From assembly GCA_020632265.1 (NCBI GenBank), contig JACKFW010000001.1:663272-727271 (forward strand): a stretch of DNA of 64,000 bases, read 5' to 3'. Below the pieces are notes generated by a model. That model was not told the origin of the DNA, did no database searches, and saw only the letters and a program-made list of their open reading frames with translations. A program made the position numbers and the translations under genes. Source of the DNA: Pseudomonadales bacterium (GTDB lineage: Bacteria; Patescibacteriota; Microgenomatia; UBA1400; PJMF01). Shown here piece by piece: positions 4,408 to 48,381 of the stretch; position 1 is the first letter of the stretch; the number at the start of each line of letters is the position of its first letter.

Positions 4408-4428
4408 GCTTTAATAGGCGAACAGACT

Positions 4429-4479
<51 letters not shown>

Positions 4480-11748: not shown

Positions 11749-11855
11749 ATCAATATCCTCACTTTTTATTGAACTTATCTGTTTTTATATTCGGTAAATC
11801 TAAGGGTATTATACCACAAAAAGGATAAATTAAGCTCGTGTAGACGGAAAAACTA

Positions 11856-12021: not shown

Positions 12022-12151
12022 ATTTCCTTTAAATTTAATGTTAAGTTAAACTATTTTTTAACTATTTTTTAACTATTATAGTGTAGCATCTATACTTTTT
12101 ATAATGTCCTCAAAACAATAAATCATTTTAAGGACATTACGTAGTATAGTA

Positions 12152-16451: not shown

Positions 16452-18503
16452 ATGGAAAATACCAACTCACAACCACAAGCTTTCTACACGAAAATGCCTA
16501 ATGTTGTAAATTCTATGCAAGACAGTGTTTTGCCATCCAATAATAATTCATCAAAAAATCCACCAAAAAAGGGACTAAAAAATGTAATGGCGGTAATTGG
16601 GTTACTAGTATTTGTTGTCATTGCGCTCACTGGCGTGTTTATCGCACAAAAACAAGTTTCCAAAATTGGTGAAGACACAAAACCTGTGTCTCCTACTGCT
16701 CCTGAATCCAAACCTCAAGCAGCAATTGACACTAATAATTATTGCTCTACTCAATTTTTTGTACCAAAAGGAAGTGCTGCTTGTGACACAAAAATTGCAT
16801 TAACCGATTTTACAAAAAAATCCGGCAAAGTTATTCCTGAACAAACAATCTTCAATGTTGGAGACACCTTTGTTTTCAAAATTACTGCATCGGCAACAGA
16901 CGACACTATTGGTGGAGTTAAAATTACCGATACATTGCCAACTTCATTAGAGTTCATTAACGATCCAAACAATACAGCTGGAATTATCAATGAAGGACAA
17001 ACTATAATTGCCAATCTTGTGGACATGAAAAAAGGAGATAAAAAAGAAATTGAATTTAAAGTCAAAGTTGTATCTGGAGTCGGAATCTCTACAAGTGATG
17101 GAACTCAAGTAAACCTAGCCACGGTTATAACCAATGAAGACAATAAAACCAAATCATCTTGTTCATATAAATTTAAAACAATTGAAGGAACTGCCGAATG
17201 TATATCTAAAGAAATGTTTGACGGTGACCCTGCAAACCGAAACTCAAAAATTGTACCTGAAGGAAGTGCTCTCGTTAGAGGCGAAGAATATGTGTACTAC
17301 ATTACAATTAATGCAAAAAATAAAACAAATGGTGAAGTCAAACTGCATGATGTTCTACCTTCAAATCTTGAATTTGTAAGGCCTTTGCCTGCCAGTGCTA
17401 AATTCATCTCAAATAAAGCTGGTGAAAATACAATATTCGTAAATTTTGGAACTCTGGAAAATGAAAAAGTAACTTTAGGATTTGTTGTTAAAGTTGTAGA
17501 CAATCCTACAATTGGTAAATTCAACAATTCAGCGCTAGTTTATATTTTCCCACCATTCTCAAGACAACCAGAACCACCTAAAGACGGTAGTTTCTGCAGT
17601 GTCTCGCACTCTATTATTCCAGTGGGCACAGCACAGTGTTTGGAAAAAGAAGCCTTCACAGATTTTTCCGGAAGTGAAATATTGGCAAATGATACCATCA
17701 AAGCTGGCCAAGAATTTGTCTATAAGGTTTCTATACAAGCAGAAAACGTCACTGATGGAGACGTTGTTATAGTAGACCAGTTATCTTCGAACCTAATATT
17801 CGTTGATGATCCAAAAAACACCGCAGGCATTAAATACGATTCAAATACTCGAAAAGTATCAATCAACTTCGGACCAATAGTCAATGATGAGGTTAGAACC
17901 ATTCAATTCAAAGTCCAAGTAATTGCCAATCCTTCAGGTGACATGATTACAAATATTGCAACTGTTACAACAAATAATCAATCGTCTCATACTTGTGAAT
18001 TGCCATTAAAACTATACGTTGATCAAACTTATGCTTGCAACGAAGAATGTCAAACCAATGAAAACTGCCAAACAGCTAACGATGATTATATTTGTTACAG
18101 TTCTTCAAACGGCAAAGTATGTAGATTGGATAGCAATCCTCTTGACACCGGCTGCAATCCTACCAACACACCTACACCAACACCTACACCAACACCTACA
18201 CCAACACCAACCACTTCTTCTGCACCTGAACCTGGATGTAATGATCTTTGCACCAGTAATGCAAGTTGTATTAATTCAAATCACGTTTGTCTCACTACTG
18301 CTGATGGATCAAATAGATGCAGATTGGAATCGAATCCTGATTCTATAACCTGTTCTAATCCTGTAGAATATGTTGCAAACGCACCAACTCAACCACAGCT
18401 ACCTACTGAATTACCACAAACTGGACCTGAAGATTGGCTAAATTGGTTCAAAGCTGGGTTAGTTACCTTAGGAGTCGCAACCGCCCTCTTCTTACTGCTC
18501 TAA
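16452..18503 (+). CDS. LPXTG-anchored surface protein with three DUF11 (conserved repeat domain) repeats, two Cys-modules and a (PT)n linker
   Basis: N-terminal TM/signal MAVIGLLVFVVIALTGVFIA. DUF11-like blocks ITDTLPTSLEFINDP, LHDVLPSNLEFVRP and IVDQLSSNLIFVDDP. Linker [18 protein letters not shown]-terminal LPQTGPEDWLNWFKAGLVTLGVATALFLLL. Confidence 0.65.
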   Translation: MENTNSQPQAFYTKMPNVVNSMQDSVLPSNNNSSKNPPKKGLKNVMAVIGLLVFVVIALTGVFIAQKQVSKIGEDTKPVSPTAPESKPQAAIDTNNYCSTQFFVPKGSAACDTKIALTDFTKKSGKVIPEQTIFNVGDTFVFKITASATDDTIGGVKITDTLPTSLEFINDPNNTAGIINEGQTIIANLVDMKKGDKKEIEFKVKVVSGVGISTSDGTQVNLATVITNEDNKTKSSCSYKFKTIEGTAECISKEMFDGDPANRNSKIVPEGSALVRGEEYVYYITINAKNKTNGEVKLHDVLPSNLEFVRPLPASAKFISNKAGENTIFVNFGTLENEKVTLGFVVKVVDNPTIGKFNNSALVYIFPPFSRQPEPPKDGSFCSVSHSIIPVGTAQCLEKEAFTDFSGSEILANDTIKAGQEFVYKVSIQAENVTDGDVVIVDQLSSNLIFVDDPKNTAGIKYDSNTRKVSINFGPIVNDEVRTIQFKVQVIANPSGDMITNIATVTTNNQSSHTCELPLKLYVDQTYACNEECQTNENCQTANDDYICYSSSNGKVCRLDSNPLDTGCNPTNTPTPTPTPTPTPTPTTSSAPEPGCNDLCTSNASCINSNHVCLTTADGSNRCRLESNPDSITCSNPVEYVANAPTQPQLPTELPQTGPEDWLNWFKAGLVTLGVATALFLLL

Positions 18504-18752: not shown

Positions 18753-20483
18753 TTGAATGTTGAGAATATGGGTTTGTCATTCAAGGAAAATATTATGATT
18801 AATGTATCGATGGGAAATCCCTCACAAACTGTTTCTACCGGAACAAATCCATCTTTTCCTACCCATAATCCAGCATCTCAAAATTTATCACTAATGAATA
18901 ATGTTGTTGCTCAAGGAAATGTTAGTACTTCTCCAGCATCTACTAGTTTTCCAAATCAGAATACTAGTGCTCCAAGATCTACTCTTGATTCAGTTTCACC
19001 AAAATTTCCCGATCCAACTAACCCTCAAAATAAAAACAGTGGTTCTGCTCCAATTTCTGACAATTTTAAACCAAAAAATAAACTAAACCTCAAGATGGTT
19101 CTTGGAATAGTCGTATTATTATTAATTGTTTTAGGATCTGGATCTGGATTCTATCTGTCACAAAAAACTCAAGACCTTAGACAACAGGCATACAATGGAC
19201 AATCTTGTAGTACCTCAACTCAGTGTTCTGGATACCCAAACGAAACCTGTTTTGGCGGTGTGTGCGTGCCTTCGGCACCACCACCAGCTACGACACCACC
19301 ACCTCCAGCCACACCTCCTGGAAGCACACCACCACCAGCTACAACGCCACCTCCAACCATACCTCCTGGGGGCACACCACCACCTGCTACGACACCACCA
19401 CCTGCTACGACACCACCACCTGCTACGACACCACCACCCGCAATTTCGCCATCACCTCCAGTAATTACACCTCCTCCAACTACGCTTTCATGTAATTCAA
19501 TCTGTGTTGTTACATCTGGCGTTGATCCTTGCTATCAAGTTGATCCAAAACTATACTGTAGTTTTATTGAAGGTTCCACTGAGCGCAGATGTAGATTAAA
19601 AACAAATCCTACTTCAGTAACTTGTAGTCCTGCAACACCACCGCCAGCTACAACGCCACCTCCAACAACGCTTTCATGCAACTCAATTTGCACTCCATCA
19701 ACTGGTTCTGGAGAAGATCCTTGTACCCTAGTTAATAGAGCTTGGTCTTGTTACACACTCGTTGACCAAGATCAAAGTAGATGCAGATTAACAAGCAATC
19801 CAACTTCTATTTCCTGTAGTCCTTCAGTCACACCAACACCAACGCCATCATTTTCGCCTACACCAACCCCCACATCTAAAACTTCACCTACGCCAACACC
19901 AATTCCTCTAACTTGTAATGCAAGTTGTACGCCAGGATTAGGAAAAAGTGACCTTTGTACTGCAGCTAATAGTAATTGGTTCTGTGATCCGGCTACCAAC
20001 AAATGTAGATACGAAACAAATCCGTCTTCAACCACATGTGAAGCTCCAGTTGGATCAGTGGCATGCAATCAAACTTGCACTTCAGATCAACAGTGCTACA
20101 ACACTAATAAAAACTGGCTTTGTGACTCTTCAAGCAAAACTTGTAGGTTATCATCCAATATAAGCTCTATCACATGCCAACCGTTGCCTACGGCAACTCC
20201 TACTCCAACACCATACTCAGAAGTAGGATGTAATGACTCATGTTATACAAACTCAGATTGTTCAAATAGCAGTCACATCTGTGTTACAACCTCTGATGGA
20301 TCGAATCGATGTCGATTAGAATCATATACAGACTCAGTAACTTGTACTATTCCTGGAAGTTCAACCTCACAACCAACTCTCCCAACTTCCTTACCAGAAA
20401 CTGGACCTGAAGATTGGCTAAATTGGTTGAAAGCTGGATTAATAACGCTTGGAATTGGCACAGCTCTTTTCCTACTTCTTTAA
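18753..20483 (+). CDS. LPXTG-anchored Cys-rich surface protein. N-terminal low-complexity tail, one TM, PPATTPPP repeats, then 5 to 6 Cys-modules.
   Basis: [35 protein letters not shown]. Five to six modules ending ...RCRL(K/T)(T/S)NP(T/S)S(V/I)(T/S)C. C-terminal LPETGPEDWLNWLKAGLITLGIGTALFLLL. Confidence 0.6.
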   Translation: MNVENMGLSFKENIMINVSMGNPSQTVSTGTNPSFPTHNPASQNLSLMNNVVAQGNVSTSPASTSFPNQNTSAPRSTLDSVSPKFPDPTNPQNKNSGSAPISDNFKPKNKLNLKMVLGIVVLLLIVLGSGSGFYLSQKTQDLRQQAYNGQSCSTSTQCSGYPNETCFGGVCVPSAPPPATTPPPPATPPGSTPPPATTPPPTIPPGGTPPPATTPPPATTPPPATTPPPAISPSPPVITPPPTTLSCNSICVVTSGVDPCYQVDPKLYCSFIEGSTERRCRLKTNPTSVTCSPATPPPATTPPPTTLSCNSICTPSTGSGEDPCTLVNRAWSCYTLVDQDQSRCRLTSNPTSISCSPSVTPTPTPSFSPTPTPTSKTSPTPTPIPLTCNASCTPGLGKSDLCTAANSNWFCDPATNKCRYETNPSSTTCEAPVGSVACNQTCTSDQQCYNTNKNWLCDSSSKTCRLSSNISSITCQPLPTATPTPTPYSEVGCNDSCYTNSDCSNSSHICVTTSDGSNRCRLESYTDSVTCTIPGSSTSQPTLPTSLPETGPEDWLNWLKAGLITLGIGTALFLLL

Positions 20484-21871: not shown

Positions 21872-22672
21872 ATGATTTTAAAATTAATAAATGTTTCCAA
21901 GCATTATCAGCTAGGAAATAACCTAATCAAAGCACTAAATAATACAAGCGTCGAAGTAAATGAGGGCGATTTTATTTCGATTATGGGTCCTTCAGGATCT
22001 GGAAAATCAACATTTTTACAGATTGCAAGTATTTTAGCCGAGCCTACTAGTGGTCAAATTTTTCTAAAAGATAAAGATGTAACCTCATATAATGAGGTTG
22101 AAAGAGCTAAAATCAGAAATCAAGAAATTGGTTTTATATTTCAACAATTTAATTTATTGGCAAGAACCTCTGCCATCGATAATGTTGCACTTCCCTTGGT
22201 ATACGCAGGAGTTAAAAATTCGCAACAAATTAAACGCGCCACTGAAATATTAACAAAAGTGGGTCTTGCTGAAAGATTATATAACACTCCAGCCCAACTC
22301 TCTGGTGGTCAGCAACAAAGAGTAGCAATCGCAAGAGCACTCATCAACAATCCTTCAATTATTTTTGCAGACGAACCAACTGGTAATTTAGATTCTAAAT
22401 CCGGCGATGAAATCATGAAAATTTTGCAAAATCTACACAAAGAAGGTAAAACAATAGTGATGGTAACTCATGAAGAAGACATTGCTCAATTGGCTGAAAG
22501 ACAAATTGTTTTTAAAGATGGTGAGATCGTATTCGATTCGGGATCAAAAAAGAGCCAAACTAAAAAAATCATCAAAACAAAAAATACAAAAATAATAAAT
22601 AAAAATACAAAAATAATAAATAAAAATACAAAAATAATAAATAAAAATACAAAAATAATAAAGAAAAAATAA
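21872..22672 (+). CDS. ABC transporter ATP-binding protein (MacB/LolD/FtsE-like) with a C-terminal (KNTKIIN)n tandem-repeat tail
   Basis: Walker A GPSGSGKSTFLQI, Q-loop, signature LSGGQQQRVAIARAL, Walker B IIFADEPTGNLD and H-loop VMVTHE. A 24-nt DNA repeat of 4 copies lies at 22575-22668. Confidence 0.85.
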   Translation: MILKLINVSKHYQLGNNLIKALNNTSVEVNEGDFISIMGPSGSGKSTFLQIASILAEPTSGQIFLKDKDVTSYNEVERAKIRNQEIGFIFQQFNLLARTSAIDNVALPLVYAGVKNSQQIKRATEILTKVGLAERLYNTPAQLSGGQQQRVAIARALINNPSIIFADEPTGNLDSKSGDEIMKILQNLHKEGKTIVMVTHEEDIAQLAERQIVFKDGEIVFDSGSKKSQTKKIIKTKNTKIINKNTKIINKNTKIINKNTKIIKKK

Positions 22673-24374: not shown

Positions 24375-26702
24375 TTAAAGATTACTTCTGCTTTGAATTT
24401 CAGACTCAACGATCTCAACTTCTTTACCATATTTCAATCTAGATAGCTCCTTGATCATCTCTGCCTGTTTAGGATTCATCCTAGCTTTAATATCATCCAT
24501 GTCTTTCTCTAAAGACATACTAAATGCAGGAACAGGTTCATTTTTTACAATCGTTTTGATATATACATGATACTTTTCTATATTTGTCAAATCACCTTCG
24601 TTAAAAGTTGGTGCAAACTCATGTTGCAAAAAGTTTGCATCTGGAACACCAACTCTAAATGAAACCATAGTACCAACGTTTCCAAAAACAGCATTCTTCA
24701 CATCCTCATCAATTTGACTAACAAACTGATTGGCAACAATTAAATTTAAGCGATACTTTCTAGCTTCTGAAAGAATAACTGCAAAATCTTCAGTTGCGTA
24801 ATTCTGAAACTCATCAACATATAAGAAAAAATCTTTTCTTTGATCCATTGCAACATCCTGACGACTCATCGCGGCAGTTAAAACTTTTGGTACAAGAATT
24901 AAACCTAAGAATTTTGCATCTTCTTCACCCAGAACTCCTTTTGAAAGATTGCATAGTATTACTTTCTGATCATCCATAGCCTGTCTAAAATTAAACGAAC
25001 TTTCAGGCTGACCGATAATATTACGCATTGTTTTGTTGGTCACAAACCTACCAAATTTAGAAACAATATAATCTAAAACCTCAGATTTGTGAAAATCCGA
25101 GGTTTGTGCAATTTGATCAGTCCAATATCGCCTTACCACTGGATCTTTAATTAATGGCATCATTTCATCAACATACTTACTGTCAGTTAAAATACGAACG
25201 AGTTCAATAAATGTACTACCTTTTTTATACATGATACTCAACATCGCATTTCTAATTGCATGTTCAAATCTTGGTCCAATAATTCCTGTTCGATGCGGAT
25301 CGTATAGTTTGTACATCAAACCAATGATTGAACCGACCACAAAATGTCTTTGTTCCTCTGAATCAGCTTCCATCATGTTTAAACCCATTGGTCTTGATAA
25401 ATCGGATGGGTTGAAATAAATAACATCATCTGCTCGTTCTGGAGGCATTAATTCTAAAATATCTTCAATGAATTCTCCATGAGGATCAATGGCACAAACT
25501 CCCTTACCTGCCTCAATATCTTGCAAAATCATTTCCTTAAGAAACTCAGATTTACCTGTACCAGTTTTTCCAATAATATACATATGTCTTCTTCTGTCAT
25601 CATCGCCAATAAAAACTTCTCTATCTTCACCTCTATAATTTGATTTACCCAAGCGCAAACCTGTTTTGGGAATATTATGTGGTGCCGGAGCATTTTTTGC
25701 ATTTAAATATCGAATATGATGAGTTTCAACTGTTTTATTTGGTAAATGAAAAATTGTTGCTAATTCTTCAGAATTTAAAATAAAGGTTCCTATGTTAAAA
25801 ATTGGCATATATCTATATATAAAATCAATCATAAATAGATGCTTTAGCCATATTCTAGCCTTCTTAAATGAGTTATATGCGGATGAATACTGAGCAAATG
25901 TACCAACTATGTTATTTAGATGAGATTCGGCCATATACTCATTTTGTGCAGAAACAACAATTCTAATAGAAACTTTAAATCCGGGCTTTTCTACCTTTTG
26001 ATTAATTAATTCCATTTCCTTAGGATCATTTGCATATGAAGCATTTTTTGGATCAGCCTCACGCTTTTTCTGGGCTGCAACGAAAGATCTTCCCTGTTTT
26101 TGCCATTTTCTGGATTCTGGTTGAAGGAGAATTTGAATAATCGCACCTTCGCCAGCACCCATCTTAGAAAGTGCCGAAGTTAATAAAGATAAACCATCAG
26201 TTGGTAAATCCTTAAACATTTTGAGTGGAATATATGTAGCTTTTTCTAATTTAAGAGAAGCAAAAGCAACTTTGCCCTTCTTGCTAAAGATATTCACTTC
26301 GTCAACTTCCTTGATATCAGCATTTGGATATGCTCCATGGATTTGCTTTTCCACCAAATCTCTAATCTTGCGAGGACAATTCATATAAAATGATATCTCT
26401 TCTTGAAGAGCCACTATCTCAAAAGAGAACAAGTTTTCAGCTTTTGCCCAAGCAAAAATACCAGATTTTTTAAGCGAGTAAAGAGATGCAAAAAGTTGCT
26501 CTGCGGCATCAATTTTAGTTTCATTATCTTTAGGAACTCTTATTAACAAAGAAACAAATTCAAGTGCAACTTTTTCCCTATTACGATGTTTAAACCACTG
26601 AAAAACCATGTAAATGAATACGATAAATATCGCCAAAAAAAGAATTGCAAAAATCAATAGCATTAAAAAAGATGCAATTCTGGCTGTAAAATCACCTTCC
26701 AT
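24375..26702 (-). CDS. Membrane-anchored FtsK/HerA-superfamily P-loop ATPase, type IV secretion VirB4/TraC-like. A VirD4/TraD-type coupling protein is not excluded.
   Basis: Two N-terminal TM helices. Walker A YIIGKTGTGKSEF is followed by GVCAIDPHGEF (DUF87/T4SS-DNA_transf pattern). Walker B/arginine region LYVDEFQNYATEDFAVILSEARKYRLNLIVANQ. An N-domain of about 380 aa precedes the ATPase. Confidence 0.6.
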   Translation of the reverse strand: MEGDFTARIASFLMLLIFAILFLAIFIVFIYMVFQWFKHRNREKVALEFVSLLIRVPKDNETKIDAAEQLFASLYSLKKSGIFAWAKAENLFSFEIVALQEEISFYMNCPRKIRDLVEKQIHGAYPNADIKEVDEVNIFSKKGKVAFASLKLEKATYIPLKMFKDLPTDGLSLLTSALSKMGAGEGAIIQILLQPESRKWQKQGRSFVAAQKKREADPKNASYANDPKEMELINQKVEKPGFKVSIRIVVSAQNEYMAESHLNNIVGTFAQYSSAYNSFKKARIWLKHLFMIDFIYRYMPIFNIGTFILNSEELATIFHLPNKTVETHHIRYLNAKNAPAPHNIPKTGLRLGKSNYRGEDREVFIGDDDRRRHMYIIGKTGTGKSEFLKEMILQDIEAGKGVCAIDPHGEFIEDILELMPPERADDVIYFNPSDLSRPMGLNMMEADSEEQRHFVVGSIIGLMYKLYDPHRTGIIGPRFEHAIRNAMLSIMYKKGSTFIELVRILTDSKYVDEMMPLIKDPVVRRYWTDQIAQTSDFHKSEVLDYIVSKFGRFVTNKTMRNIIGQPESSFNFRQAMDDQKVILCNLSKGVLGEEDAKFLGLILVPKVLTAAMSRQDVAMDQRKDFFLYVDEFQNYATEDFAVILSEARKYRLNLIVANQFVSQIDEDVKNAVFGNVGTMVSFRVGVPDANFLQHEFAPTFNEGDLTNIEKYHVYIKTIVKNEPVPAFSMSLEKDMDDIKARMNPKQAEMIKELSRLKYGKEVEIVESEIQSRSNL

Positions 26703-37266: not shown

Positions 37267-38358
37267 TTAATCAACTAAACTATAGCTGACGCCTTTGGTA
37301 ACTCCACGTTTTTCAATAACCTTTTTATCAATCAAATCTTTAACATCTCTTAGGATTGTGTCAACGGAAATATTGGGAAGCACAAGTTTCATATCTTCTG
37401 AAGTTACTTCGTCTTGATTTTGAAAAAGCTCAAGTAAGATAATCTGTCTTTCAGATAAAGCAACTTGTTTTCCCAATTGTTTTTTTAGCTTTAAATCTTT
37501 TGATAATCTCATTACTTGTTGGCGAACTTTATCAATTTCAATTGCTAATCCATAACAAAAATACTCCAGCCAATAACTCATATCTTTAGTTTTACTTTGT
37601 TGAACAGACAATAATGCTTGATAATATGCCTCAACATCGCTGTCAAAATATTGTTCAATCGAAAAAAACTTTTTAAAATCATATCCAAGAGAATATAAAA
37701 CCAGCGTTGCCATAGCTCTGGCTGTCCGACCATTTCCCTCAATAAATGGATGAATATAAACAAGTTGGTAATGAACAATAGCAGCTTTTAAAATTGGGTG
37801 AATATTCTGCGCTTCATCACTGTGAATCCAAATAAATAAATCATCAATTAAATAAGGAATTTCCATTGAAACCGGTGGTCTATAAACTACGCTAGAATTA
37901 GCTGCACTTTTGACGATAACTTGTTTATCTCGATAATTTCCAGAATAATTATCTTCAATTAGATTATTAATAGTAAGCTTATGAATAGTTTTTAAAGTAT
38001 CAACTGTAAAAAGTGTTTTTAAATTTCCGCTTCTTTGTTTATCAATCCAAGAAATTACATTGCGATAGTTTAGAACCTCTTGGATATCTCTGGCTCTTGC
38101 CAAAATACCAGTTTGTTTAGAAATTTCAGATGTATCAACAACATTATCAAGTCTAACAACTTGCTGAGCTTGTTCTTTGGTAAGATCATTTCCCTCAATC
38201 TTGGTTCCATAATGAACGGTTCTAGTGAAAGCTTCATCTCGAAATTTTGCTTCCCAAGCAGGTACTAAGGGTGCATGATCAATCAAGGCCTTTGCTGACT
38301 CAATTCTTGAGATATATGTGAGAAGATTGTTGGTAATTTTGAATTCAGGCTGATACAT
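37267..38358 (-). CDS. Fic family protein (adenylyltransferase-type) with a C-terminal winged-helix domain
   Basis: Canonical Fic motif HPFIEGNGRTARAMATL. N-terminal Fic_N-like helix GTKIEGNDLT. C-terminal ...SERQIILLELFQNQDEVTSEDM is an HTH-like region. Confidence 0.85.
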   Translation of the reverse strand: MYQPEFKITNNLLTYISRIESAKALIDHAPLVPAWEAKFRDEAFTRTVHYGTKIEGNDLTKEQAQQVVRLDNVVDTSEISKQTGILARARDIQEVLNYRNVISWIDKQRSGNLKTLFTVDTLKTIHKLTINNLIEDNYSGNYRDKQVIVKSAANSSVVYRPPVSMEIPYLIDDLFIWIHSDEAQNIHPILKAAIVHYQLVYIHPFIEGNGRTARAMATLVLYSLGYDFKKFFSIEQYFDSDVEAYYQALLSVQQSKTKDMSYWLEYFCYGLAIEIDKVRQQVMRLSKDLKLKKQLGKQVALSERQIILLELFQNQDEVTSEDMKLVLPNISVDTILRDVKDLIDKKVIEKRGVTKGVSYSLVD

Positions 38359-39342: not shown

Positions 39343-40521
39343 TTATACTCTAACAACAATGCTATCCTCACTATTTAATTGAATTTCACTAACAATTTTT
39401 TTATCGGTAGTGGTAACTATTGATTGATATTTTTTCAAAACACTTTGGGCAAGCAATTTGCTGTCACTATCCAATTCTGACAAAATATCATCCAAAAGTA
39501 ATAAGGTTTTTTTATTAGTTGCCTTTGCCAAGTATTCCAACTCACAAAATTTTAACCATAAAACCCCTAATCTTTGCTGACCTCTTGAGCCAAACAAATC
39601 TAATCTTAATTTTCTCGACACTTTGTCTTTTGCTGATTTTTCATTCAAATAAATAATGATGTCATCTTTATGTGGTCCAATTAAGGTATGTCCAGAAGCT
39701 ATTTCTCTATTAAGATATTGATCTAGTCTGCTTTCTGAAATAACTGAGGGGTCATACTCTATCTCAAAATCTACCGGGAAAACTACGCTTGAAAAATTGG
39801 CAATAAATTTCCTTCTAAACTCTTGCAATATTTCTCCATATCTTACTAAATTAATATTCCAATATTTAAGTGCAGTTCTGTTCTGCTCTCCTTCACGCAC
39901 CTGTAATAATAATTTATTGCGTCTTTTTAATGTCTGTTGATAATTTTTTATTGCAACTTCATAATCTGAATGAATCATCGATAAAGCTGTATCTAAAAAA
40001 TCTCTTCTTCTGGCTGGAGAACCCTCAATTAAACGCATATCTTCAGGACGAAAAACAACTGTATAAAACTTGCCAATTGCATCTTTTTTTCTTCTTTTAA
40101 CTCCGTTAACCGAAAAAAGCCTGTGTTGAGTGCGCTTGCCGTTGACCTCGCCACGGGTTAATATCACTTCAATTTCATCAGTTTCTTCAAAGTTGTTTTG
40201 ATCATTCAAAGATTCTTGGATTTCTGCTTCCCCTGATTCTTCAGAAACATTCAAGTATTCAAAGTCAACATTGATATGATTGTCTGTTGCTTCATATTTT
40301 ATTATTCCCTTAATTCTTGCTAAATCTGCATCAAAATTTATCATTTCTTCAATTCTTGAAGCCCTAAAACTATTTCCAGTTGAAAGCAATGATATTGCTT
40401 CGATAATACTGGTTTTTCCTGCAGCATTATCACCAACAATAATCGTAGTTTTATTAGAAAATTTCAGATGAAAACTGTTATGAGATCTAATATTTTGGAG
40501 AACCAAACCTGTAATAACCAT
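39343..40521 (-). CDS. recF: DNA replication and repair protein RecF
   Basis: N-terminus MVITGLVLQNIRSHNSF...TIIVGDNAAGKTSIIEAI (Walker A). C-terminal signature/Walker B LLLLDDILSELD. Confidence 0.85.
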   Translation of the reverse strand: MVITGLVLQNIRSHNSFHLKFSNKTTIIVGDNAAGKTSIIEAISLLSTGNSFRASRIEEMINFDADLARIKGIIKYEATDNHINVDFEYLNVSEESGEAEIQESLNDQNNFEETDEIEVILTRGEVNGKRTQHRLFSVNGVKRRKKDAIGKFYTVVFRPEDMRLIEGSPARRRDFLDTALSMIHSDYEVAIKNYQQTLKRRNKLLLQVREGEQNRTALKYWNINLVRYGEILQEFRRKFIANFSSVVFPVDFEIEYDPSVISESRLDQYLNREIASGHTLIGPHKDDIIIYLNEKSAKDKVSRKLRLDLFGSRGQQRLGVLWLKFCELEYLAKATNKKTLLLLDDILSELDSDSKLLAQSVLKKYQSIVTTTDKKIVSEIQLNSEDSIVVRV

Positions 40522-40721
40522 AGTTAAAGTAAGTATACTATGATAAATAATTTTTTGGTTATTAAGCCTAAGTTCTATTGTCCATAAGGAAAATCTTTTT
40601 TCTCGTTAGCAAACAATTTTTAATATTCCATCCAAATCTTGCAGTAATCATTTCTTTAAGTCCTATAGTTATGATATAATGACATTTTGCTACATAGCTA
40701 TTACATATTTTTATAAATAAC

Positions 40722-43700
40722 ATGATAGAGATATTAAGAAAGTCATTAAATAGAATTACCAGAAACGATCACACCATCGATTCTGACTTACTGCATGCAA
40801 CGGCAGACTCTGTGCTAGTCAAAGAGGGACATTCCGCGATAGCTCATGAAGTTGCTGATGATTTACCAGCTCTTCGCTTTCTATATAGAGTATTAATGGT
40901 CGCTTCAGAACTTGCAACGCTAAACATGACTTATTCTATGCTTAATGGAAATAGTGAAACGTTATTCATTTCAGCCATCATATACGCAATTACACGAGCC
41001 ACCGGCATTCACTACTCTAATGTGTCTCAAGAAAAAGTTTCCGAAGTACTAGAACTCGTAGTAGATGCTCTCGATGAACACCCTATCAAATCAGATTCCG
41101 ACCAACCAGCTAATCGAGAATTTAGAATTCCTTTTGATCAACTTGCTGCCATTGCTAATAATGAACGCTTCAGTCATCTAAATCCTTGGGAACAATTATT
41201 TTGGCTGGCACTTCAATTTGCAACCATCAGCTCCCAATCACCAGAGATAATTCCAGTTGCTTTAGCCGCCTGGACACTATGCTCAATAGATTTATTTTTT
41301 AGCGGTAAAGCCTACAAATGGGCACATAACAATGTCGTACATTATAGAAGTATTGCAAAAGATAGACTAAGTCGATTCAGCCATCTCACACCAAAAGAAG
41401 ATGCAAAAAAGAAACAACTTTCAGGAAGAAGAAATGCCACTGTTGATTTAATTAATTTAACTTCATATGGGCTTCCATTTTTGTTTCTAGCCTTATCGGC
41501 GATAGAGCAAGTCGGCAATGTTGTCGCCGGCGCAGCAATAATTGGATCCAAAATGTTAGGTTCTCTGTCAAGTGCGGTAAACACCAAAGAAAACCGAATC
41601 AATGGTCAAAATGCAAGCACAACTCTTGGTAAAATAAATGAAAAAGTGAAAAATGGTGGCAGAATTTTTGTTGCCACAGAAGGAGAACAACAATTCAGAA
41701 GAAATCGTGATAATCAAGAACAAAATCTAGTGCAGAAACCTGAATTAAATTTGAATACCAAATTACTAGTAGAGAAACTAGATGTAATTGCTCCTAATGG
41801 TCAAAAATTATTTGTTCTCGATGGCAGAATAGAATTAACTTGCGAAGGTAAAGGACTACTAACACTCATTTCGGGTTCAAGTGGATCAGGGAAAACCACC
41901 TTGCTTGCGGCACTAACAGAAACATCTTCTGCGTGTCAATGCGGGAGAATACAACTCGAATTAACTGAAGACAAGACTAAAATTCGACTCATAGATTTAC
42001 CAGTTGAACAATTAAAAAAAATATTTGTTTTTTGCGATGGAAGACTTCCCAATCAATCCTTAATAGATTCATTAGTATCTCCAGATAAACGTGAATTTGA
42101 TAATTTATCAGAAGCAGAAAAAGAGCAGGTAGCACGTTTTTCGTGGAGAGAACTAAAGCAATTTGCTGCTACAAATGTGAATATAAATGCAATAGTTGAA
42201 AATATACGCCATCAAGCAACAGAAATTATGGAAGAGTCACGCTTATTTTCAAACAATGAAATCCCGGGTTTATTAGATGCAAATAATTTATCTGATGCTT
42301 CTTCGGGACAAAAACGCAGGCTAGCGCTTCTTCTAGCGAGCAGAGAGGCACAAGCAAATCAAGGTGTTTTATTTATTGATGAACCACTAGCAAAACTAGA
42401 CAATGAAACTGCGCAAAGCAATACCCGTCTCGTAATTAATTTTATTAAAAGATTATTAAAAATGGGCATTCCAGTCATCATGACTGATAATTCTGCTCCA
42501 GAACTAATAATGAGAAGTTTTATCGAATATCTGGCAACTCAAATTAAATTAAAAGATAATTTCGCCACTATATTAACTTATCCTTCAGTTGTTGCGGGAT
42601 TAAAGAAACATTCTACAACAGGAAAAGATACCGAAATCAAAGCGAAATATTTAATTGGTACAAAAGTAAGAGATCAAGAAGACGATCTTTTAAAACATAT
42701 CAATGGACCATATCGTCAGGAGTTAATGCACACCCCTCCTGATTATCAAATGAAAATAATCAGGGAGGCTATGGATAAAAATGAAGAATGCAGAGTTGTA
42801 CTCGGAAAATGTTCAAGCTTATGGAATTCTTTAGAAAATTCACAAACAGAACTCACCCAAGAAGAAAATGATACTTACTTAAGTATTTTAGCAATTTATA
42901 GACATTTAGCAGCGTCAATATGTGTCGATTTAATAGATATGATGCAATCTGATTCATCAGATAATAATTATAAATTACCACAAGACTATCAAGTTTTTCT
43001 TAGTCATTTAGACAAACTTAAAACCAACTTATTATCTCTCACTGAATTTTTATTAGCAAGCACAGTAAACTTGGATTCGCAAGAATACCTATTGTTTCCC
43101 TATCAAACTACTCAAAGTTTAATCTTAGAAATGCTCAATAAATTAATAGCAACGATAAATAATGATGATGCAGGGACAAGAAATATTCTAATACCAACTA
43201 GTTGGAGGAGCGAAGAAAATTGTTTGAACACCGTATTACAAGAAATAACGCGCGCTAAGCTTGAGGCGCTCTCAAGCTACAAAAAGGTTAGAGAACACTT
43301 TTCGACTGGTATTAATATGGGCTTTAATCGTATAAATGATAGGAATAAACATAATGCAACCAATCCTCTCGATCCACACGGATTTATGGCATACCATAAA
43401 TTAGATAGATCGAAAAGAAGTTACTTGCCAAAAATTACTGATGTATTGGCCAAAAAATCTCATGATCAACTAAGACTCCTTCATCCACATTCACCAACCT
43501 TAAGAGTATTAACTTTACTTCATATTGAACAGAGCTTACTTGGTCCAAATCATTCCCTAAGAAATCCTTTACTGAGCCAATTCAATGCAGTAGGATACTA
43601 CGAAGCCACAAAAGGTATAAATTATCGTGATTATGCTCCAGAACTAACTAAAGCTCAAACCATTTTTCTACCTACGCCTTATTTAGAATATCCCAAAGGA

Positions 43701-44414
43701 TTAGTAATAGACATATCCAAACTCATAAGAGATTTAAATATGAATCTTGTAGAAATCACTCTAAGAGATACTCCTGATTCAGACAGCAATCCAATCACAA
43801 TATTGCACCAAGCAAAGCATGACTTGATAAATTATAGTAATAATGTAAATAATGTTATTTTACTTAATATATTAAATATCGGTCCAATATCAACTCAAGA
43901 AGTAGAAGAATTTCTTAGAGAACGTTGTAAAATTGCTGAAGGAAAAACAATTATAGTATTAATGCTTGAACATTCAGATGTATATCATAGGACACCTATA
44001 AACACTGTGGTAATTTCTCCTGGACTCGATCCTTGGGAAGGCCAAAAAAGAGCAAATCCCACTACTGAACAAATTGTATACCAGCCCGATATATTACACA
44101 CACTTTATCCAGGATTTATAGATTTTGATTACAAAAAATTATTAAGCATATGTCGATATGTTGATGAGGGACCATGGATCGATGATACTTACCTTTGGGA
44201 TCCAGAATACCAAAGAATGATTGCTCAATGGAAAAAAAGTAGGGAAAAAATAGTTCAAGACGACCCAATTAGTATGACACAGATTGACTCTTTTTCTTCT
44301 TTCGGCATCCCATTTAAAACGTGGATTTGTTATCTCCTACACAAAAAATCTCCCCAAAGGTTTAGATTTACTATAGATGAAGAATTAGAACCTTTACTTC
44401 ATCGCGATGATTAA
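40722..44414 (+). CDS. 1230-aa orphan protein with a central ABC/SMC-type ATPase head. Large N-terminal and C-terminal regions are unassigned.
   Basis: Walker A LTLISGSSGSGKTTLLAALTE (around 41860-41920), degenerate signature SSGQKRRLALLLAS and Walker B/D-loop VLFIDEPLAKLD (around 42300-42390). No TM segments and no coiled-coil arms are evident. Confidence 0.55.
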   Translation: MIEILRKSLNRITRNDHTIDSDLLHATADSVLVKEGHSAIAHEVADDLPALRFLYRVLMVASELATLNMTYSMLNGNSETLFISAIIYAITRATGIHYSNVSQEKVSEVLELVVDALDEHPIKSDSDQPANREFRIPFDQLAAIANNERFSHLNPWEQLFWLALQFATISSQSPEIIPVALAAWTLCSIDLFFSGKAYKWAHNNVVHYRSIAKDRLSRFSHLTPKEDAKKKQLSGRRNATVDLINLTSYGLPFLFLALSAIEQVGNVVAGAAIIGSKMLGSLSSAVNTKENRINGQNASTTLGKINEKVKNGGRIFVATEGEQQFRRNRDNQEQNLVQKPELNLNTKLLVEKLDVIAPNGQKLFVLDGRIELTCEGKGLLTLISGSSGSGKTTLLAALTETSSACQCGRIQLELTEDKTKIRLIDLPVEQLKKIFVFCDGRLPNQSLIDSLVSPDKREFDNLSEAEKEQVARFSWRELKQFAATNVNINAIVENIRHQATEIMEESRLFSNNEIPGLLDANNLSDASSGQKRRLALLLASREAQANQGVLFIDEPLAKLDNETAQSNTRLVINFIKRLLKMGIPVIMTDNSAPELIMRSFIEYLATQIKLKDNFATILTYPSVVAGLKKHSTTGKDTEIKAKYLIGTKVRDQEDDLLKHINGPYRQELMHTPPDYQMKIIREAMDKNEECRVVLGKCSSLWNSLENSQTELTQEENDTYLSILAIYRHLAASICVDLIDMMQSDSSDNNYKLPQDYQVFLSHLDKLKTNLLSLTEFLLASTVNLDSQEYLLFPYQTTQSLILEMLNKLIATINNDDAGTRNILIPTSWRSEENCLNTVLQEITRAKLEALSSYKKVREHFSTGINMGFNRINDRNKHNATNPLDPHGFMAYHKLDRSKRSYLPKITDVLAKKSHDQLRLLHPHSPTLRVLTLLHIEQSLLGPNHSLRNPLLSQFNAVGYYEATKGINYRDYAPELTKAQTIFLPTPYLEYPKGLVIDISKLIRDLNMNLVEITLRDTPDSDSNPITILHQAKHDLINYSNNVNNVILLNILNIGPISTQEVEEFLRERCKIAEGKTIIVLMLEHSDVYHRTPINTVVISPGLDPWEGQKRANPTTEQIVYQPDILHTLYPGFIDFDYKKLLSICRYVDEGPWIDDTYLWDPEYQRMIAQWKKSREKIVQDDPISMTQIDSFSSFGIPFKTWICYLLHKKSPQRFRFTIDEELEPLLHRDD

Positions 44415-44490
44415 TCTAAAAAAAACAATCGATATCACGGCTCATTAAAGTAACAATTAATTCCAAAAAGTAACAATTAATTCCAAATTT

Positions 44491-46245
44491 TTATTTTTTT
44501 TCAATATTAAAGAAAGCATTATTACAACCACTCCCAGACCATTGTGGAATTCTCATGTTTCCAGGTGCGCGCAAATTGAATGCTTTACAAAACTCATCAC
44601 CGCTCATACTCACTCCACTAATATTTACCAAAGAAGTATTGCCATTTCCTTGTGAAACTGAAACATTATTTGCTGAAGAAAGTCCACCATATTTTGTAGC
44701 AACATCTTTCAGTTCACTAAGACTATATGGATTACCACCCCAACATTCTGTAGTCACTGGACTAATTCTCTCAGTTTCTCCACCAGAACCATTTTTTAAA
44801 ACAAGGTGAGCATTAACAATGTCAGCCATTTCTTCAGGATTTAACCAAGGATTTGACCGCCCACAGGTCGATCCATTACTACTATATCCAGCACGCCACC
44901 AGGCCTTGTAAAGCCAAGGTGAGCCTCCAATTTTTTCAAATGATTTATCAATAAAATTACTGCCACCAGATCCATCGGTTGTATCCCATCCAGAAGAAGT
45001 TGTCCATCCTCCATGGGTTGAAGCATAAAATGTCGTGACATCTTCCAAAACTTGACCCTTTGTCTGATCCACTGCTTCCTTCCAAGCTTGTGGGACATTT
45101 TCAGATTTTGATTTGTTAAATACCTGACATGCTTCTGTAATACAAATTTCATTGCCATCTTTTTTATAACGCAAAGCAAAAGTTCTTGCGGCAACTGCTT
45201 GAGCTTTAAGAGCTTCCTTGTGCCAACTCGATGGCATTTCGGCAATTCCATATAAATAAGTTGTTTCAAAATCAATACTTCCCTGACCAGCAACTCGAAT
45301 TGTTCCTGAGGTTTCAGACTCTTTATTAACTGGCTCTTTACCATAATAAAATTTTAAAATCTCAACAAAACTTTTTCCAGATTCAGCTCTCCCTCTTGCG
45401 CCATATTGACTCATACCTTTTCGATGACTGTAAGCTCCAAATGAAAAAATTGCAAAACTTCCCGAGGGAGCTTGCTCCCTAAACCCTTTTATAGATGCCA
45501 AATAATCATCGGCTAATTCACTATCTCCAATTGACGCTGTAAAACTTCCGCTTCTTGCATTAATAATTTCTTGTTGTCTAGTAGACAATTCAGCAATTTT
45601 TCCCCCCAACTCTTTCTGATAATCTTTAGCTTTGTCAATTTCTATTTTAAAAAATGTTGCTTGTTCGTCTAATTGCTTTTCTAAAGATGCTAATGTAATT
45701 TGATCAGTTTCAAGCTTTTTTTTGTCTGCTTGAAGCTCTCGAATATCTTCGCCTATTGCTTTAATAAATTGATTATCTTGATTTTTTATTGAATCTCTAT
45801 ATGCCAAATCCTTTGTTAGATCGGAAGCATTTTCACTTGCTAAGATAGTTGTAATTGGTGAGTATGTTCTAATTCTTTTGTATTGTTGGGCAATTCTTTT
45901 GGAAAAAATTTGATATTGAAAGGCTAAATCAATTTCGCGATCCTTAATCTCACCAGCAAGTTTTTCTGCTGCGGTACGTGCTACCCAAATTGAATATCTA
46001 GCATTACTAATACGTTTTTCTAATGACCCAACTTCTTGTTCAAGCGGTTTGGTAGCGTCCTCTGATAGTTTTTTAAGATGTTCAAGTTCGTCAATTTGAC
46101 TTTGTAAATCATCAACTTCATCAGCGTAAACTTGAGATAAAATCAATTCTCTAATCTCATGTCTAAAAAAATCAAATCTTGTAAAAGATATACCAAAAAA
46201 AAATAATGCTAAAACCATTTTCAAAATTGTTTCATTTTTAGTCAT
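44491..46245 (-). CDS. SpoIID/LytB-domain protein with an N-terminal TM and a coiled-coil region (cell-wall remodelling)
   Basis: SpoIID signature AYSHRKGMSQYGARGRAESGKSFVEILKFYYG. N-terminal TM, then a long heptad-like segment as in M23/LytM-family coiled-coil N-termini. Confidence 0.65.
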   Translation of the reverse strand: MTKNETILKMVLALFFFGISFTRFDFFRHEIRELILSQVYADEVDDLQSQIDELEHLKKLSEDATKPLEQEVGSLEKRISNARYSIWVARTAAEKLAGEIKDREIDLAFQYQIFSKRIAQQYKRIRTYSPITTILASENASDLTKDLAYRDSIKNQDNQFIKAIGEDIRELQADKKKLETDQITLASLEKQLDEQATFFKIEIDKAKDYQKELGGKIAELSTRQQEIINARSGSFTASIGDSELADDYLASIKGFREQAPSGSFAIFSFGAYSHRKGMSQYGARGRAESGKSFVEILKFYYGKEPVNKESETSGTIRVAGQGSIDFETTYLYGIAEMPSSWHKEALKAQAVAARTFALRYKKDGNEICITEACQVFNKSKSENVPQAWKEAVDQTKGQVLEDVTTFYASTHGGWTTSSGWDTTDGSGGSNFIDKSFEKIGGSPWLYKAWWRAGYSSNGSTCGRSNPWLNPEEMADIVNAHLVLKNGSGGETERISPVTTECWGGNPYSLSELKDVATKYGGLSSANNVSVSQGNGNTSLVNISGVSMSGDEFCKAFNLRAPGNMRIPQWSGSGCNNAFFNIEKK

Positions 46246-46405: not shown

Positions 46406-47638
46406 ATGGTGAAAAAACTTTTCTTATCTTTGTTAATTTTTATTTCGATCTTTTTTGCAACTCAAACAAAGGTTTTAGCTGCTGATTGTACTGGAGTTCT
46501 CGAAGGAGTTGGAGTTACTCTCGAAGAATATCAACCTGGAATGACGCATGATATTAAAATTGATCTCTCGAGTTATGATCAAGATGAAGAATATTATATA
46601 AAAGTTAAGAATTTTCAAGCAACTTTTGATGATGAATGTCAAACAGACACATTCCCGTTAAATCAAGGTAGTCAAACTGGAAGTAATAGCTCGTGTAGAT
46701 GGTATCTTAGTGGATCAGTCCTGACTTTAACCCTTACTGGCAAAGAACCTCTTTCACCTGCTCCAAGTGGTACTCAAAATGATGTTCATGTAGTAAATTT
46801 GTATAGAAGAGAGCCGTTGAGCAATTTAGTTTGTAGAATTGGAGAATACTATACTCCGCAAGTCAATCTTGGGGGTAATTGTAGCTGGCAAATTTGGCAA
46901 GGGTCAGCTCCTAATAATGCCTGTTATTATCCCGGATGTTTAGAAATAAATAAATCAACAACAATTAAAGTGATGGGCCTAGAAATGAACGGTCAGCCTT
47001 ATAACGAGGAAGTTCAATTTGAAATCTACAAAACCAGTGGTTTTATCATGGATCAAAATGCACAAGCAACAGGTGGTGAAGCACAAACAGCTTTCACGCC
47101 TACTTCAAATTCAAAACATACCATATCAATACAAATACCTAGAATTGGTAGAAATTATACTTGGCCTGATTGTATAATATCCTTTACTCCACAAGAAAAC
47201 TGTGGTGCGGATCAGTGCAATTCAGAAGAAACAACTGTCGGAGGCGGACCAAGAAGTGTTGGAGCAGATGTTTTCTCGCTTTGCGATCAAATTCCAGAAG
47301 CAAATTCCGAATTAAGAGAAAAATGCATAGAATGTGCAGGTGGTGAAGGTGGACTTGCAGGAATTTGGACAGCCATTGGCTGTATTAAAAGAGATCCTCA
47401 AGCAATAGTTGAAAAATTCATCAAATTAGGGCTGGGCATGGGTGGAGGCGTAGCACTGCTTTCATTTCTTGCTGCAGGATTTATATATAGCACTTCTCAA
47501 GGAAGTCCAGAAAAAGTTAAAAGTGCTAAAGAAATGATGACTGCATCCATCGTTGGAATCTTATTCGTCATATTTTCAGTAACATTGTTACAATTTATTG
47601 GTTGGTCAATATTTAAAATTCCTGGATTTGGAGGATAA
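46406..47638 (+). CDS. Secreted Cys-rich ectodomain protein fused to a C-terminal VirB2/TrbC-like pilin module (two hydrophobic helices with a basic loop)
   Basis: Signal peptide MVKKLFLSLLIFISIFFATQTKVLA. The C-terminus LSFLAAGFIYSTSQGSPEKVKSAKEMMTASIVGILFVIFSVTLLQF matches the module of the 59.0-62.9 kb array. Confidence 0.55.
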   Translation: MVKKLFLSLLIFISIFFATQTKVLAADCTGVLEGVGVTLEEYQPGMTHDIKIDLSSYDQDEEYYIKVKNFQATFDDECQTDTFPLNQGSQTGSNSSCRWYLSGSVLTLTLTGKEPLSPAPSGTQNDVHVVNLYRREPLSNLVCRIGEYYTPQVNLGGNCSWQIWQGSAPNNACYYPGCLEINKSTTIKVMGLEMNGQPYNEEVQFEIYKTSGFIMDQNAQATGGEAQTAFTPTSNSKHTISIQIPRIGRNYTWPDCIISFTPQENCGADQCNSEETTVGGGPRSVGADVFSLCDQIPEANSELREKCIECAGGEGGLAGIWTAIGCIKRDPQAIVEKFIKLGLGMGGGVALLSFLAAGFIYSTSQGSPEKVKSAKEMMTASIVGILFVIFSVTLLQFIGWSIFKIPGFGG

Positions 47639-47643
47639 ATCTG

Positions 47644-48381
47644 ATGAAATTAATCATAAAAAAATCCCTATTATTAATTATTGCAACTTATTTTTATTTG
47701 GGATTAATCCCAAATGATGTTAATGCTGTAGTAACCATACCATCTTCGTGTACAGGTTTTTGTATGGTTGAAAACCAACTTTGCCCTAGCGGAAGTATTA
47801 ATCCAGATCCATCATGTCAATCTGGAATAAATCCAATTTATAATGGCAATGCATGTTGTGTAGACTCTCCACCATTAAATCTAGATTGTGGCGCCTCTTA
47901 TGACCCATCACAAACCTTAGGTTGTAATTGTGATAGTGGAGTAAATGGTTTTATATATAACGGCCAAGATAGATTATGTTGCGGATGGGTCTTAGAGAAT
48001 AATGGATCAAGCGTTTGTTCATATAGTCCAGACCCTGAAGAAATTGGTCCACCAATTACAATCACTGATGGCCTTAGTTCTGCAACATTTAATGCGCTGA
48101 ATCCATTAAAAATTACCAATTCTCCTGTTGCAGACCAACTATCTTCTCCCGGAGGAATTGTTTCAAGATTATTAAGTTTTCTTTTTCCCTTGGCAGGCTT
48201 ATTATTATTTTTGTTAATTACTTGGGGGGGGTTTGAAATCCTTCTAGGATCTGCAAATCAAAAAGGTATGGAAGCTGGAAAAAATAGAATCACGGCAGCT
48301 CTTGCTGGATTCTTTTTACTATTTGCGTCATATTGGCTCGCTCAAATTGTTGAAGTAACATTTGGAGTTACCATTCTTTAA
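47644..48381 (+). CDS. Secreted Cys-rich protein fused to a C-terminal VirB2/TrbC-like pilin module
   Basis: Signal peptide. C-terminus AGLLLFLLITWGGFEILLGSANQKGMEAGKNRITAALAGFFLLFASYWLAQ. 5-nt gap to the preceding paralog. Confidence 0.55.
   Translation: MKLIIKKSLLLIIATYFYLGLIPNDVNAVVTIPSSCTGFCMVENQLCPSGSINPDPSCQSGINPIYNGNACCVDSPPLNLDCGASYDPSQTLGCNCDSGVNGFIYNGQDRLCCGWVLENNGSSVCSYSPDPEEIGPPITITDGLSSATFNALNPLKITNSPVADQLSSPGGIVSRLLSFLFPLAGLLLFLLITWGGFEILLGSANQKGMEAGKNRITAALAGFFLLFASYWLAQIVEVTFGVTIL

Follow-up and report, generated by a model that had tools for sequence, protein, structure and literature searches.

Soluble ATPases of the ATP-binding cassette (ABC) type serve as conflict sensors or scaffolds in several described systems. 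In Septu the ATPase PtuA is encoded adjacent to the HNH nuclease PtuB, ABC-3C is a three-gene unit composed of an ABC ATPase with a coiled-coil insert, a middle component and an effector, and OLD proteins are about 550-600 aa long. The Avs/STAND sensors are built around an oligomerising NTPase, with one module on its N-terminal side and, on the other, a large and mostly helical C-terminus that evolves fast. OLD proteins combine an N-terminal ABC ATPase with a C-terminal Toprim domain, and those of class 1 are single genes located outside defence islands with a helical insert in the ATPase (PMC10568477). PARIS requires AriB, the TOPRIM partner of AriA (PMC11464382). Here we describe a gene at positions 40722-44414 of a stretch of 64,000 nucleotides (assembly GCA_020632265.1, contig JACKFW010000001.1, positions 663,272 to 727,271 of the forward strand), hereafter the window, to which all coordinates refer unless another contig is named. 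Its product is listed by NCBI as MCB9813442.1, annotated as an 'ATP-binding cassette domain-containing protein' and encoded on a 1.08-Mb contig. The protein places a familiar ATPase module in an architecture not described before and belongs to a family of two members, the other being a distant homologue here called P0002. A preliminary description, made from the letters of the window, had taken the protein for an orphan with an ABC/SMC-type ATPase head and had compared it to anti-phage systems of the OLD/Gabija, PARIS, Septu and ABC-3C types. The gene and its ATPase domain are laid out as follows.

40722-44414, forward strand: complete open reading frame (ORF), 1230 aa, MCB9813442.1; 100% identical DNA in other sequencing runs
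41763-42551, forward strand: ABC nucleotide-binding domain (NBD), residues ~348-610, transporter class by its sequence, with a family-specific insertion of ~40-50 aa in the helical subdomain
41874-41897, forward strand: Walker A, GSSGSGKT, residues 385-392
42297-42314, forward strand: ABC signature, ASSGQK, residues 526-531, one Gly-to-Ser change from the canonical LSGGQ
42366-42401, forward strand: Walker B, VLFID553-E554, and D-loop, PLAKL559-D560, residues 549-560
42489-42491, forward strand: Asn590 at the H-loop position, where P0002 and the two ordinary NBDs of the window have His

The sole Pfam match of MCB9813442.1 was ABC_tran (PF00005), covering residues 377-556 with 34.3 bits against a cut-off of 25 bits; P0002 scored 43.8 bits with the same model. 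The state of each motif was read from a MAFFT alignment of four sequences, namely the two family members and two ordinary NBDs of the window, one of the MacB type (21872-22672) and one of the ABC-2 type (1773-2594). The Walker A, signature and Walker B/D-loop motifs named in the preliminary description were recovered at residues 385-392, 526-530 and 549-560, with a signature core of A526-S-S-G-Q530, the catalytic Glu554 kept and a D-loop of L559-D560. Four of the six ABC motifs (Walker A, signature, Walker B with its Glu, and D-loop) are accordingly present. The Gln of the Q-loop is absent from both family members, its position in MCB9813442.1 being occupied by D449 or S450 (register +/-1), and an Asp, D449, is invariant in both at the Q-loop position or one residue before it. 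The catalytic Glu and His, which the preliminary description had singled out for checking, differ in their fate: the Glu is present, and the His of the H-loop is replaced by Asn590 in MCB9813442.1 only, since P0002 keeps it.

On this sequence evidence the head is a contiguous NBD of the transporter class and a member of the ABC ATPase superfamily. With the NBDs of ABC transporters (PF00005; the MJ0796/LolD type, CydC/CydD and PhnL) it shares a contiguous domain of ~230-260 aa and its motifs, to which it adds the insert of ~40-50 aa in the helical subdomain and some 970 further residues. Unlike ABC transporters, it has no recognisable transmembrane domain (TMD) in cis or nearby and neither the Q-loop Gln nor the H-loop His. 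The best matches of the NBD in NCBIfam and PDB were to CydD/CydC, ModC, PhnL, MJ0796, PDR and UvrA at 23-37 bits and revealed no special affinity. The split head of the SMC/RecN type proposed in the preliminary description is not borne out. Walker A and the signature are separated by 134 aa (135 aa in P0002), and the corresponding distances in the window's ordinary NBDs are 97 and 81 aa. This indicates an insertion of ~40-50 aa in the helical subdomain and no coiled-coil arms, and SMC_N scored 14.6 bits against a cut-off of 40 bits in Pfam. The long insertion of SMC, RecN, Rad50 and RecF heads is thus lacking, and the absence of coiled-coil arms, as had been stated, is upheld; the longest helix modelled in the protein is 46 aa, in models of low confidence. 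ABC-F proteins and UvrA have two tandem NBDs, whereas MCB9813442.1 has a single Walker A and a single NBD, with no internal repeat in a self-BLAST. Pfam nSTAND matches covered the P-loop only, at E > 0.01. The tripartite layout resembles that of Avs/STAND-type sensors by analogy only, as the NTPase is of the ABC and not the STAND type and no known effector or sensor repeat was recognised in the protein.

The designation as an orphan holds with one exception. In a word-index search of the full protein against 5.8 billion clusters only the protein itself was found. An exhaustive phmmer (HMMER) search of 1.84 billion representatives, in which the N- and C-terminal regions were joined and the ABC domain was left out of the query so as not to swamp the list, yielded one other protein, P0002 (E 1e-7). 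P0002 is 986 aa long and is encoded at 10001-12961 (+) of a 51-kb contig (L001; Logan, SRR33230362) with 47% G+C and the appearance of the candidate phyla radiation (CPR). By BLASTP, residues 77-624 of MCB9813442.1 align with residues 92-648 of P0002 at 24% identity over ~580 aa (E 2e-24). The two proteins have in common the architecture of N-domain and NBD, the insertion in the NBD, the Asp in the Q-loop region and a conserved hydrophobic segment, and they differ in the H-loop His, in genomic context and in their C-termini, which are unrelated (340 aa in P0002 against 620 aa). The P0002 gene ends a same-strand run comEA-comEC-MBL-GT4-WecG/TagA-orf88 (L001 7426-12961 (+)), in which orf88 encodes 88 aa with one hydrophobic stretch, and its surroundings include tRNA synthetase genes, with NUDIX and uppS ~4 kb away. 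No further relatives were obtained from a word-index search with P0002 or a profile search with the N-domain, no family member was added by scans of GTDB genomes, viral contigs and JGI metagenome contigs, and no paralogue is present in the window. The genes of both family members have uppS within ~4 kb; this proximity may be accidental, or it may hint faintly at a connection with genes for envelope glycopolymers.

The gene for MCB9813442.1 is cargo in a variable chromosomal slot, which is delimited as follows.

39343-40521, reverse strand: recF, left boundary of the slot (TIGR00611, 235.7 bits)
40522-40721, no strand: divergent intergenic region between recF and the gene, 200 bp, no Shine-Dalgarno motif
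44447-44486, no strand: perfect tandem duplication, 2 x 20 nt AAAGTAACAATTAATTCCAA, located in the 76 bp that separate the stop codon of the gene from that of the convergent SpoIID-like gene
44491-46245, reverse strand: SpoIID/LytB-domain gene, right boundary of the slot, directly preceding recF in relatives

Related loci were found in GTDB genomes with RecF as anchor (L002-L006), and 18 proteins of the window were mapped onto the retrieved loci. Three of these (L002, L003 and L004) have in common the order GHMP-MVD-NUDIX-UppS-pilin2-pilin1-SpoIID-RecF-NnrD-Fic-ligase-GT2-Pth-MFS, and a counterpart of MCB9813442.1 is absent from all three despite 10-16 syntenic flanking genes. Between SpoIID and recF the slot is empty in L002 (1594-1674, ~80 bp). 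It comprises 738 bp in L003 (8244-8981), with a CopG-antitoxin-like ORF (E 7e-5) and a weakly matching DUF4258/RelE-like ORF, and 777 bp in L004 (9224-10000), with a 220-aa AstE/M14-like ORF. In the window it measures 3969 bp (40522-44490) and holds the gene under study as its sole gene. In each case (window, L003 and L004) SpoIID and recF are on one strand and the cargo is on the other. Besides this gene no partner ORF of at least 90 aa is present in the 3.97-kb insertion, and no flanking direct repeats, att-like sites, integrase or tRNA were found at the junction. The tandem AAAGTAACAATTAATTCCAA repeat could be a footprint of insertion, or a substitute for a terminator or operator. The toxin-antitoxin-like pair in one relative lends weak independent support to a conflict or accessory role.

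The same comparison bears on the neighbourhood of Fic, DNA ligase and RecF, which the preliminary description had used as a functional cue. The geometry was correctly described, in that the gene is divergent from recF across a gap of 200 bp and the Fic gene is 2.4 kb away. The Fic gene (37267-38358 (-); PADLOC SoFic, 2e-46) is, however, always located between NnrD and the ATP-dependent DNA ligase, and it encodes the best-conserved protein of the block, with 86-88% identity to L002 and L003 against 62-76% for its neighbours. It behaves like a core gene of this lineage and not like toxin or defence cargo. Since the order is conserved without MCB9813442.1 in three relatives, Fic, ligase and RecF belong to the core synteny and are silent on its function, and the cue fails. 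Absence from the same three relatives also distinguishes MCB9813442.1 from a housekeeping factor with fixed synteny, in line with the preliminary description.

That the protein belongs to a known ABC anti-phage family (OLD/Gabija GajA, PARIS AriA, Septu PtuA or ABC-3C), as had been entertained, is largely refuted and must be considered very improbable. PADLOC gave matches to mad8 (38 bits, 2.9e-10, NBD only), mad3 (5e-10), AbiLi (1e-4) and the AriA models (17.4 and 15.3 bits, 8e-4), which might speak for such membership. The housekeeping RecF, however, matched the same models far better (mad3 4e-24, AriA 1e-11, PtuA 1e-10, GajA 1e-9), and as RecF outscores MCB9813442.1 these generic matches to ABC/SMC heads are not diagnostic; the GajA, OLD and PtuA models did not match MCB9813442.1 at E <= 0.1. 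The gene resembles class 1 OLD (P2 Old, TsOLD) in being a lone ABC-ATPase gene outside an island (PMC10568477), the small helical insertion in its NBD is located where OLD carry a dimerisation insert, and acidic residues follow the strands of an alpha/beta segment in the C-terminal region. In contrast to OLD and Gabija GajA, the NBD is central and of the transporter class, and the nuclease signatures sought in the C-terminal part did not materialise, as neither Toprim, HNH nor any other nuclease profile or PDB sequence matched. PARIS needs AriB (PMC11464382), and no partner ORF accompanies MCB9813442.1. AriA, PtuA and the ABC-3C ATPases have partner effector genes and SMC/RecF-like heads with coiled-coil inserts, neither of which is found here, and Septu is further set apart by the lack of a PtuA match and of an HNH pattern. 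MADS is a multi-gene, methylation-associated system, whereas no methylase or other MADS genes surround the gene.

The part of the protein preceding the NBD is shared with P0002 alone and has the following features.

40854-41726, forward strand: N-domain, residues ~45-335, predicted all-helical in a low-confidence model; common to P0002 only, no database match
41187-41303, forward strand: uncharged helix-Pro-helix, residues 156-194, 0 K/R; most conserved stretch of the N-domain and candidate membrane hairpin
41304-41444, forward strand: basic loop, residues 195-241, 12 K/R and 3 D/E, between the two hydrophobic stretches
41445-41576, forward strand: nearly uncharged stretch, residues 242-285, 1 K/R; candidate membrane hairpin

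Kyte-Doolittle (KD) and Hessa-scale sums were calibrated on membrane and soluble proteins from the same window. True transmembrane (TM) helices of the MFS, Lgt, ABC-2 and FtsX permeases mostly reached KD >= 2.0 with a Hessa sum <= 2, whereas the soluble controls never exceeded KD 1.63 and had Hessa sums >= 6. In MCB9813442.1 residues 176-194 are the most hydrophobic 19-mer (KD 1.81, Hessa sum 4.0), followed here by residues 243-261 (KD 1.68, Hessa sum 3.0); both segments are comparable to the weakest of the true TM segments and score above all soluble controls. The latter segment is aligned with residues 253-271 of P0002 (KD 1.87), and its hydrophobicity is thus conserved. The preliminary description had seen no TM domains, which is roughly right, except that the two uncharged stretches of ~40 residues (156-194 and 242-285) contain helices of borderline hydrophobicity. 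We infer that these may form one or two membrane hairpins, in which case the basic loop and the NBD would be cytoplasmic.

A degenerate half-transporter of the ABC exporter type with a long cytoplasmic C-terminal extension, which would export or flip a possibly envelope-related substrate, is an alternative that we regard as unlikely. The domain order and the ~350 residues before the NBD fit a TMD-NBD arrangement, and in weak NCBIfam and PDB alignments with CydC, CydD, PrtD and ABCD4 residues 306-427 correspond to the pre-NBD linker and the start of the NBD. Six weakly hydrophobic helices can be arranged in three pairs (48-96, 156-194 and 242-285), the P0002 gene follows the GT4 and WecG/TagA glycosyltransferase genes, and both members are ~4 kb from uppS. 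Yet only two segments reach the level of the weakest true TM helices, the ABC_membrane profile had no match at any threshold in Pfam (sub-segments included), and hhalign of the N-domain with the TMD of MsbA, the sequence of which was entered by hand, gave a probability of 0.15%. Moreover, the Q-loop Gln that couples NBD and TMD is absent in both members, and MCB9813442.1 is missing from close relatives that have the same envelope genes. The specific proposition that the N-domain is a six-TM exporter TMD was rejected, given the lack of an ABC_membrane match and a calibrated hydropathy that yields only two borderline segments.

Beyond the NBD, the protein continues for 620 residues, with these features.

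42552-44411, forward strand: C-terminal region, residues 611-1230, no detectable relative, P0002 included; largely helical as far as ~975, according to a low-confidence model
43698-44021, forward strand: alternating strand/helix segment, residues ~993-1100, with acidic residues after strands (D997, E1011, E1083) and D1134/D1136 further on; a lead only

The ~1000 aa that the preliminary description had left unassigned remain so: residues 1-347 and 611-1230 (~970 aa) had no match in Pfam, NCBIfam, PADLOC, PHROGs or PDB sequences. Pfam was run also on six sub-segments at E <= 10, and PDB sequences were searched both by single sequence and by profile; the sub-segment searches gave noise only (a TFIIB repeat at 16 bits, STI1 DP at 18 bits and phrog_8190 at 15 bits). 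A regular-expression scan of the whole protein found no HExxH, GxSxG, PLD, HNH, CxxC, GIY-YIG, Sir2, Fic or nucleotidyltransferase pattern. It returned seven matches to Rx4-6H against ~4 expected from a rough estimate of composition, one PD..DxK-like string from residue 1122 and DxD at 1019 and 1134, patterns for which there are no homologues to validate them. AlphaFold2 modelled residues 1-640 from a two-row alignment with a predicted local distance difference test score (pLDDT) of 38.6, only residues ~440-590 exceeding 58, and residues 601-1230 from the single sequence with a pLDDT of 34.8. Both models are unusable beyond the rough secondary structure that was taken from them.

The explanation that we favour, tentatively and well aware that it may prove wrong, is that MCB9813442.1 is a solitary, lineage-specific accessory or conflict gene product working as a membrane-associated, ATP-gated dimerising switch. 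The conserved core of the N-domain, two uncharged stretches of ~40 residues on either side of the basic loop of net charge +9, would form hairpins that hold the protein on the membrane from the cytoplasmic side. The NBD would bind ATP and form a head-to-tail homodimer; ATP binding and homodimerisation are to be expected because the domain retains Walker A, the Walker B Glu, the D-loop and a signature close to the canonical one. As the Q-loop Gln and the H-loop His are lost, hydrolysis is expected to be slow, which would suit a nucleotide-gated switch rather than a transport motor. The C-terminal region, helical and then alpha/beta, may be a fast-evolving output or recognition module, and the fact that it is not common even to P0002 fits such a module. 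The role would be of an accessory, conflict type, in defence or in interaction with a host or competitor, and not housekeeping; such a role seems the most plausible because the slot is variable.

Several observations weigh against a membrane-associated switch with an accessory role. The hydrophobicity of the candidate hairpins is borderline, most of the aligned segments in P0002 are weaker still, and the N-domain might fold as a soluble bundle of helices. With pLDDT values of 38.6 and 34.8 the structure models are too poor to offer support. P0002 is encoded amid housekeeping genes and no island can be recognised there. The composition of the gene is fully ameliorated and not foreign; either its acquisition was not recent, or the gene is native and has been lost elsewhere. 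The toxin-antitoxin-like neighbour occurs in one relative only and amounts to thin guilt by association, and the M14-like cargo of L004 has no conflict flavour. Finally, the loss of the H-loop His could be a sign of decay.

Decay in the full sense, that is, a functionless ORFan drifting as the remnant of an ABC protein, must be set against the evidence on the gene itself. The gene for a 1230-residue ABC-type ATP-binding protein is real. The frame at 40722-44414 (+), as reported in the preliminary description, runs uninterrupted from ATG to stop (1230 aa and the stop). By estimate ~7% of random codons are stops at ~33% G+C, and 1230 open codons are therefore beyond chance. The codon positions show normal coding periodicity (GC1 0.46 > GC2 0.35 > GC3 0.24), and GC3 is typical of the other 42 ORFs of the window (z = 0.4). 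Copies of the same DNA in other runs were recovered from Logan assemblies through exact-protein look-ups of the neighbours. The whole gene was found at 100% nucleotide identity in L009 (SRR12358676) and across L007 and L012 (SRR28385529), two contigs with 30 nt in common (41400-41429); this identity in separate sequencing runs makes an assembly chimera untenable. Decay is consistent with the H-loop His lost in MCB9813442.1 only, the lost Q-loop Gln, the absence of the gene from close relatives, the unconserved C-terminus and a synonymous codon choice that is mildly atypical against the ORFs of the window (z = -1.8). A 3.7-kb frame kept open at 33% G+C in a streamlined organism of ~1 Mb, normal codon-position periodicity, the retention of Walker A, Walker B with its Glu, D-loop and signature, and identical sequence in independent samples speak against it, and we judge decay to be improbable.

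The copies also show breaks within the gene. The assembly of SRR28385529 is split at 41400-41429, inside the coding region of the N-domain, and a further contig with 100% identical DNA, L008 (SRR28385527), ends 35 nt into the gene; such breaks could reflect low coverage or a variant within the population. L008 was considered as a target-free strain with SpoIID abutting recF, and this was rejected because it is colinear with the window and ends inside the gene. No strain of the species lacking the gene was found among the recovered contigs. With regard to expression signals, a Shine-Dalgarno-like motif is present within 20 nt upstream of the start in only 9 of the 43 ORFs of the window, TATAAT-like boxes closely precede several ORF starts, and many mRNAs of the window may be leaderless or independent of Shine-Dalgarno motifs.

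The organism to which the window belongs is, as judged from its sequence, Woesebacteria-like (CPR/Patescibacteria), and the label 'Pseudomonadales' of the metagenome-assembled genome (MAG) is wrong. This is concluded because RecF identity, synteny over 10-16 genes and gene content are all CPR-like. The nearest RecF proteins, 58-69% identical, are from MAGs of Candidatus Woesebacteria and Patescibacteria, and two related GTDB records (L004 and L005) are likewise labelled 'uncultured Pseudomonadales'. In keeping with a CPR bacterium, the window has ~32% G+C, is part of a contig of ~1 Mb and contains a 23S rRNA with a LAGLIDADG ORF; it encodes a ribosomal protein S1 of four domains, T4SS_pilin-type proteins along with a VirD4-like ATPase, an ATP-dependent ligase and the mevalonate pathway. 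The 23S rRNA gene (4087-7959 (-)) measures 3873 nt against 2925 nt of the Rfam model and contains a LAGLIDADG homing-endonuclease ORF (5181-5669 (-); Pfam 8.5e-19), and no group I intron model matched in the 23S region at E <= 0.01. It is flanked by 5S (3485-3601) and a tRNA (8477-8550), and there is no 16S in the window. Two ORFs of 518 and 576 aa (14877-16433 and 18753-20483 (+)), with a second-position G+C of 0.56-0.62 and no Pfam match, are probably low-complexity surface proteins, and a DUF11-repeat protein (16452-18503) is located between them. The T4SS_pilin-like genes (46406-47638 and 47644-48381 (+)) encode N- and C-terminal hydrophobic segments each and are syntenic in L003 and L004, and the VirD4/TrwB-like ATPase (24375-26702 (-)) has one very hydrophobic N-terminal helix.

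In such an organism one may also think of a secreted or surface effector that an episymbiotic CPR cell directs at its host, possibly as the substrate of a type IV-like apparatus. MCB9813442.1 is a large protein confined to its lineage, it evolves fast and its C-terminus varies, the two pilin-like genes are 2 kb away (46406-48381) and the VirD4/TrwB-like ATPase is encoded in the same window. The protein lacks a signal peptide, however, and relatives without it have the pilin genes as part of the conserved core synteny. An ABC NBD is not known as an effector module, and the chance that MCB9813442.1 is an effector appears slim.

A more far-reaching version of the conflict hypothesis would have MCB9813442.1 and P0002 represent a hitherto unseen and very rare single-gene conflict module of the CPR, carried as cargo of a hotspot that harbours a toxin-antitoxin pair elsewhere, in which a transporter-derived ABC domain would be the ATP-gated oligomerisation switch, a task that falls to STAND or SMC-like ATPases in other systems, the N-terminal membrane hairpins the effector and the hypervariable C-terminus a sensor or enzyme. 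We find this version doubtful, and offer it as rather unlikely in its full form. The remaining probability belongs to something other than the readings named here.

Two lessons follow for similar loci. Nearby Fic, ligase and RecF genes proved to be a false cue, being conserved core synteny, and generic ABC matches in libraries of defence models are not diagnostic when RecF outscores the protein in question. CPR genomes are rich in large lineage-specific proteins, and no surprising mechanism is forced by this one so far; if an accessory or conflict role is wrong, MCB9813442.1 is one more lineage-specific ORFan of the CPR. A good structure of both unassigned regions could change this limited significance. 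To our knowledge, few recognised defence systems are known in the tiny genomes of CPR/Patescibacteria. Should the accessory or conflict role be true, the protein would be a first hint of CPR proteins for immunity or host interaction that are built from a transporter-type ABC domain, and the junction between SpoIID and recF would be a hotspot worth mining in the Woesebacteria.

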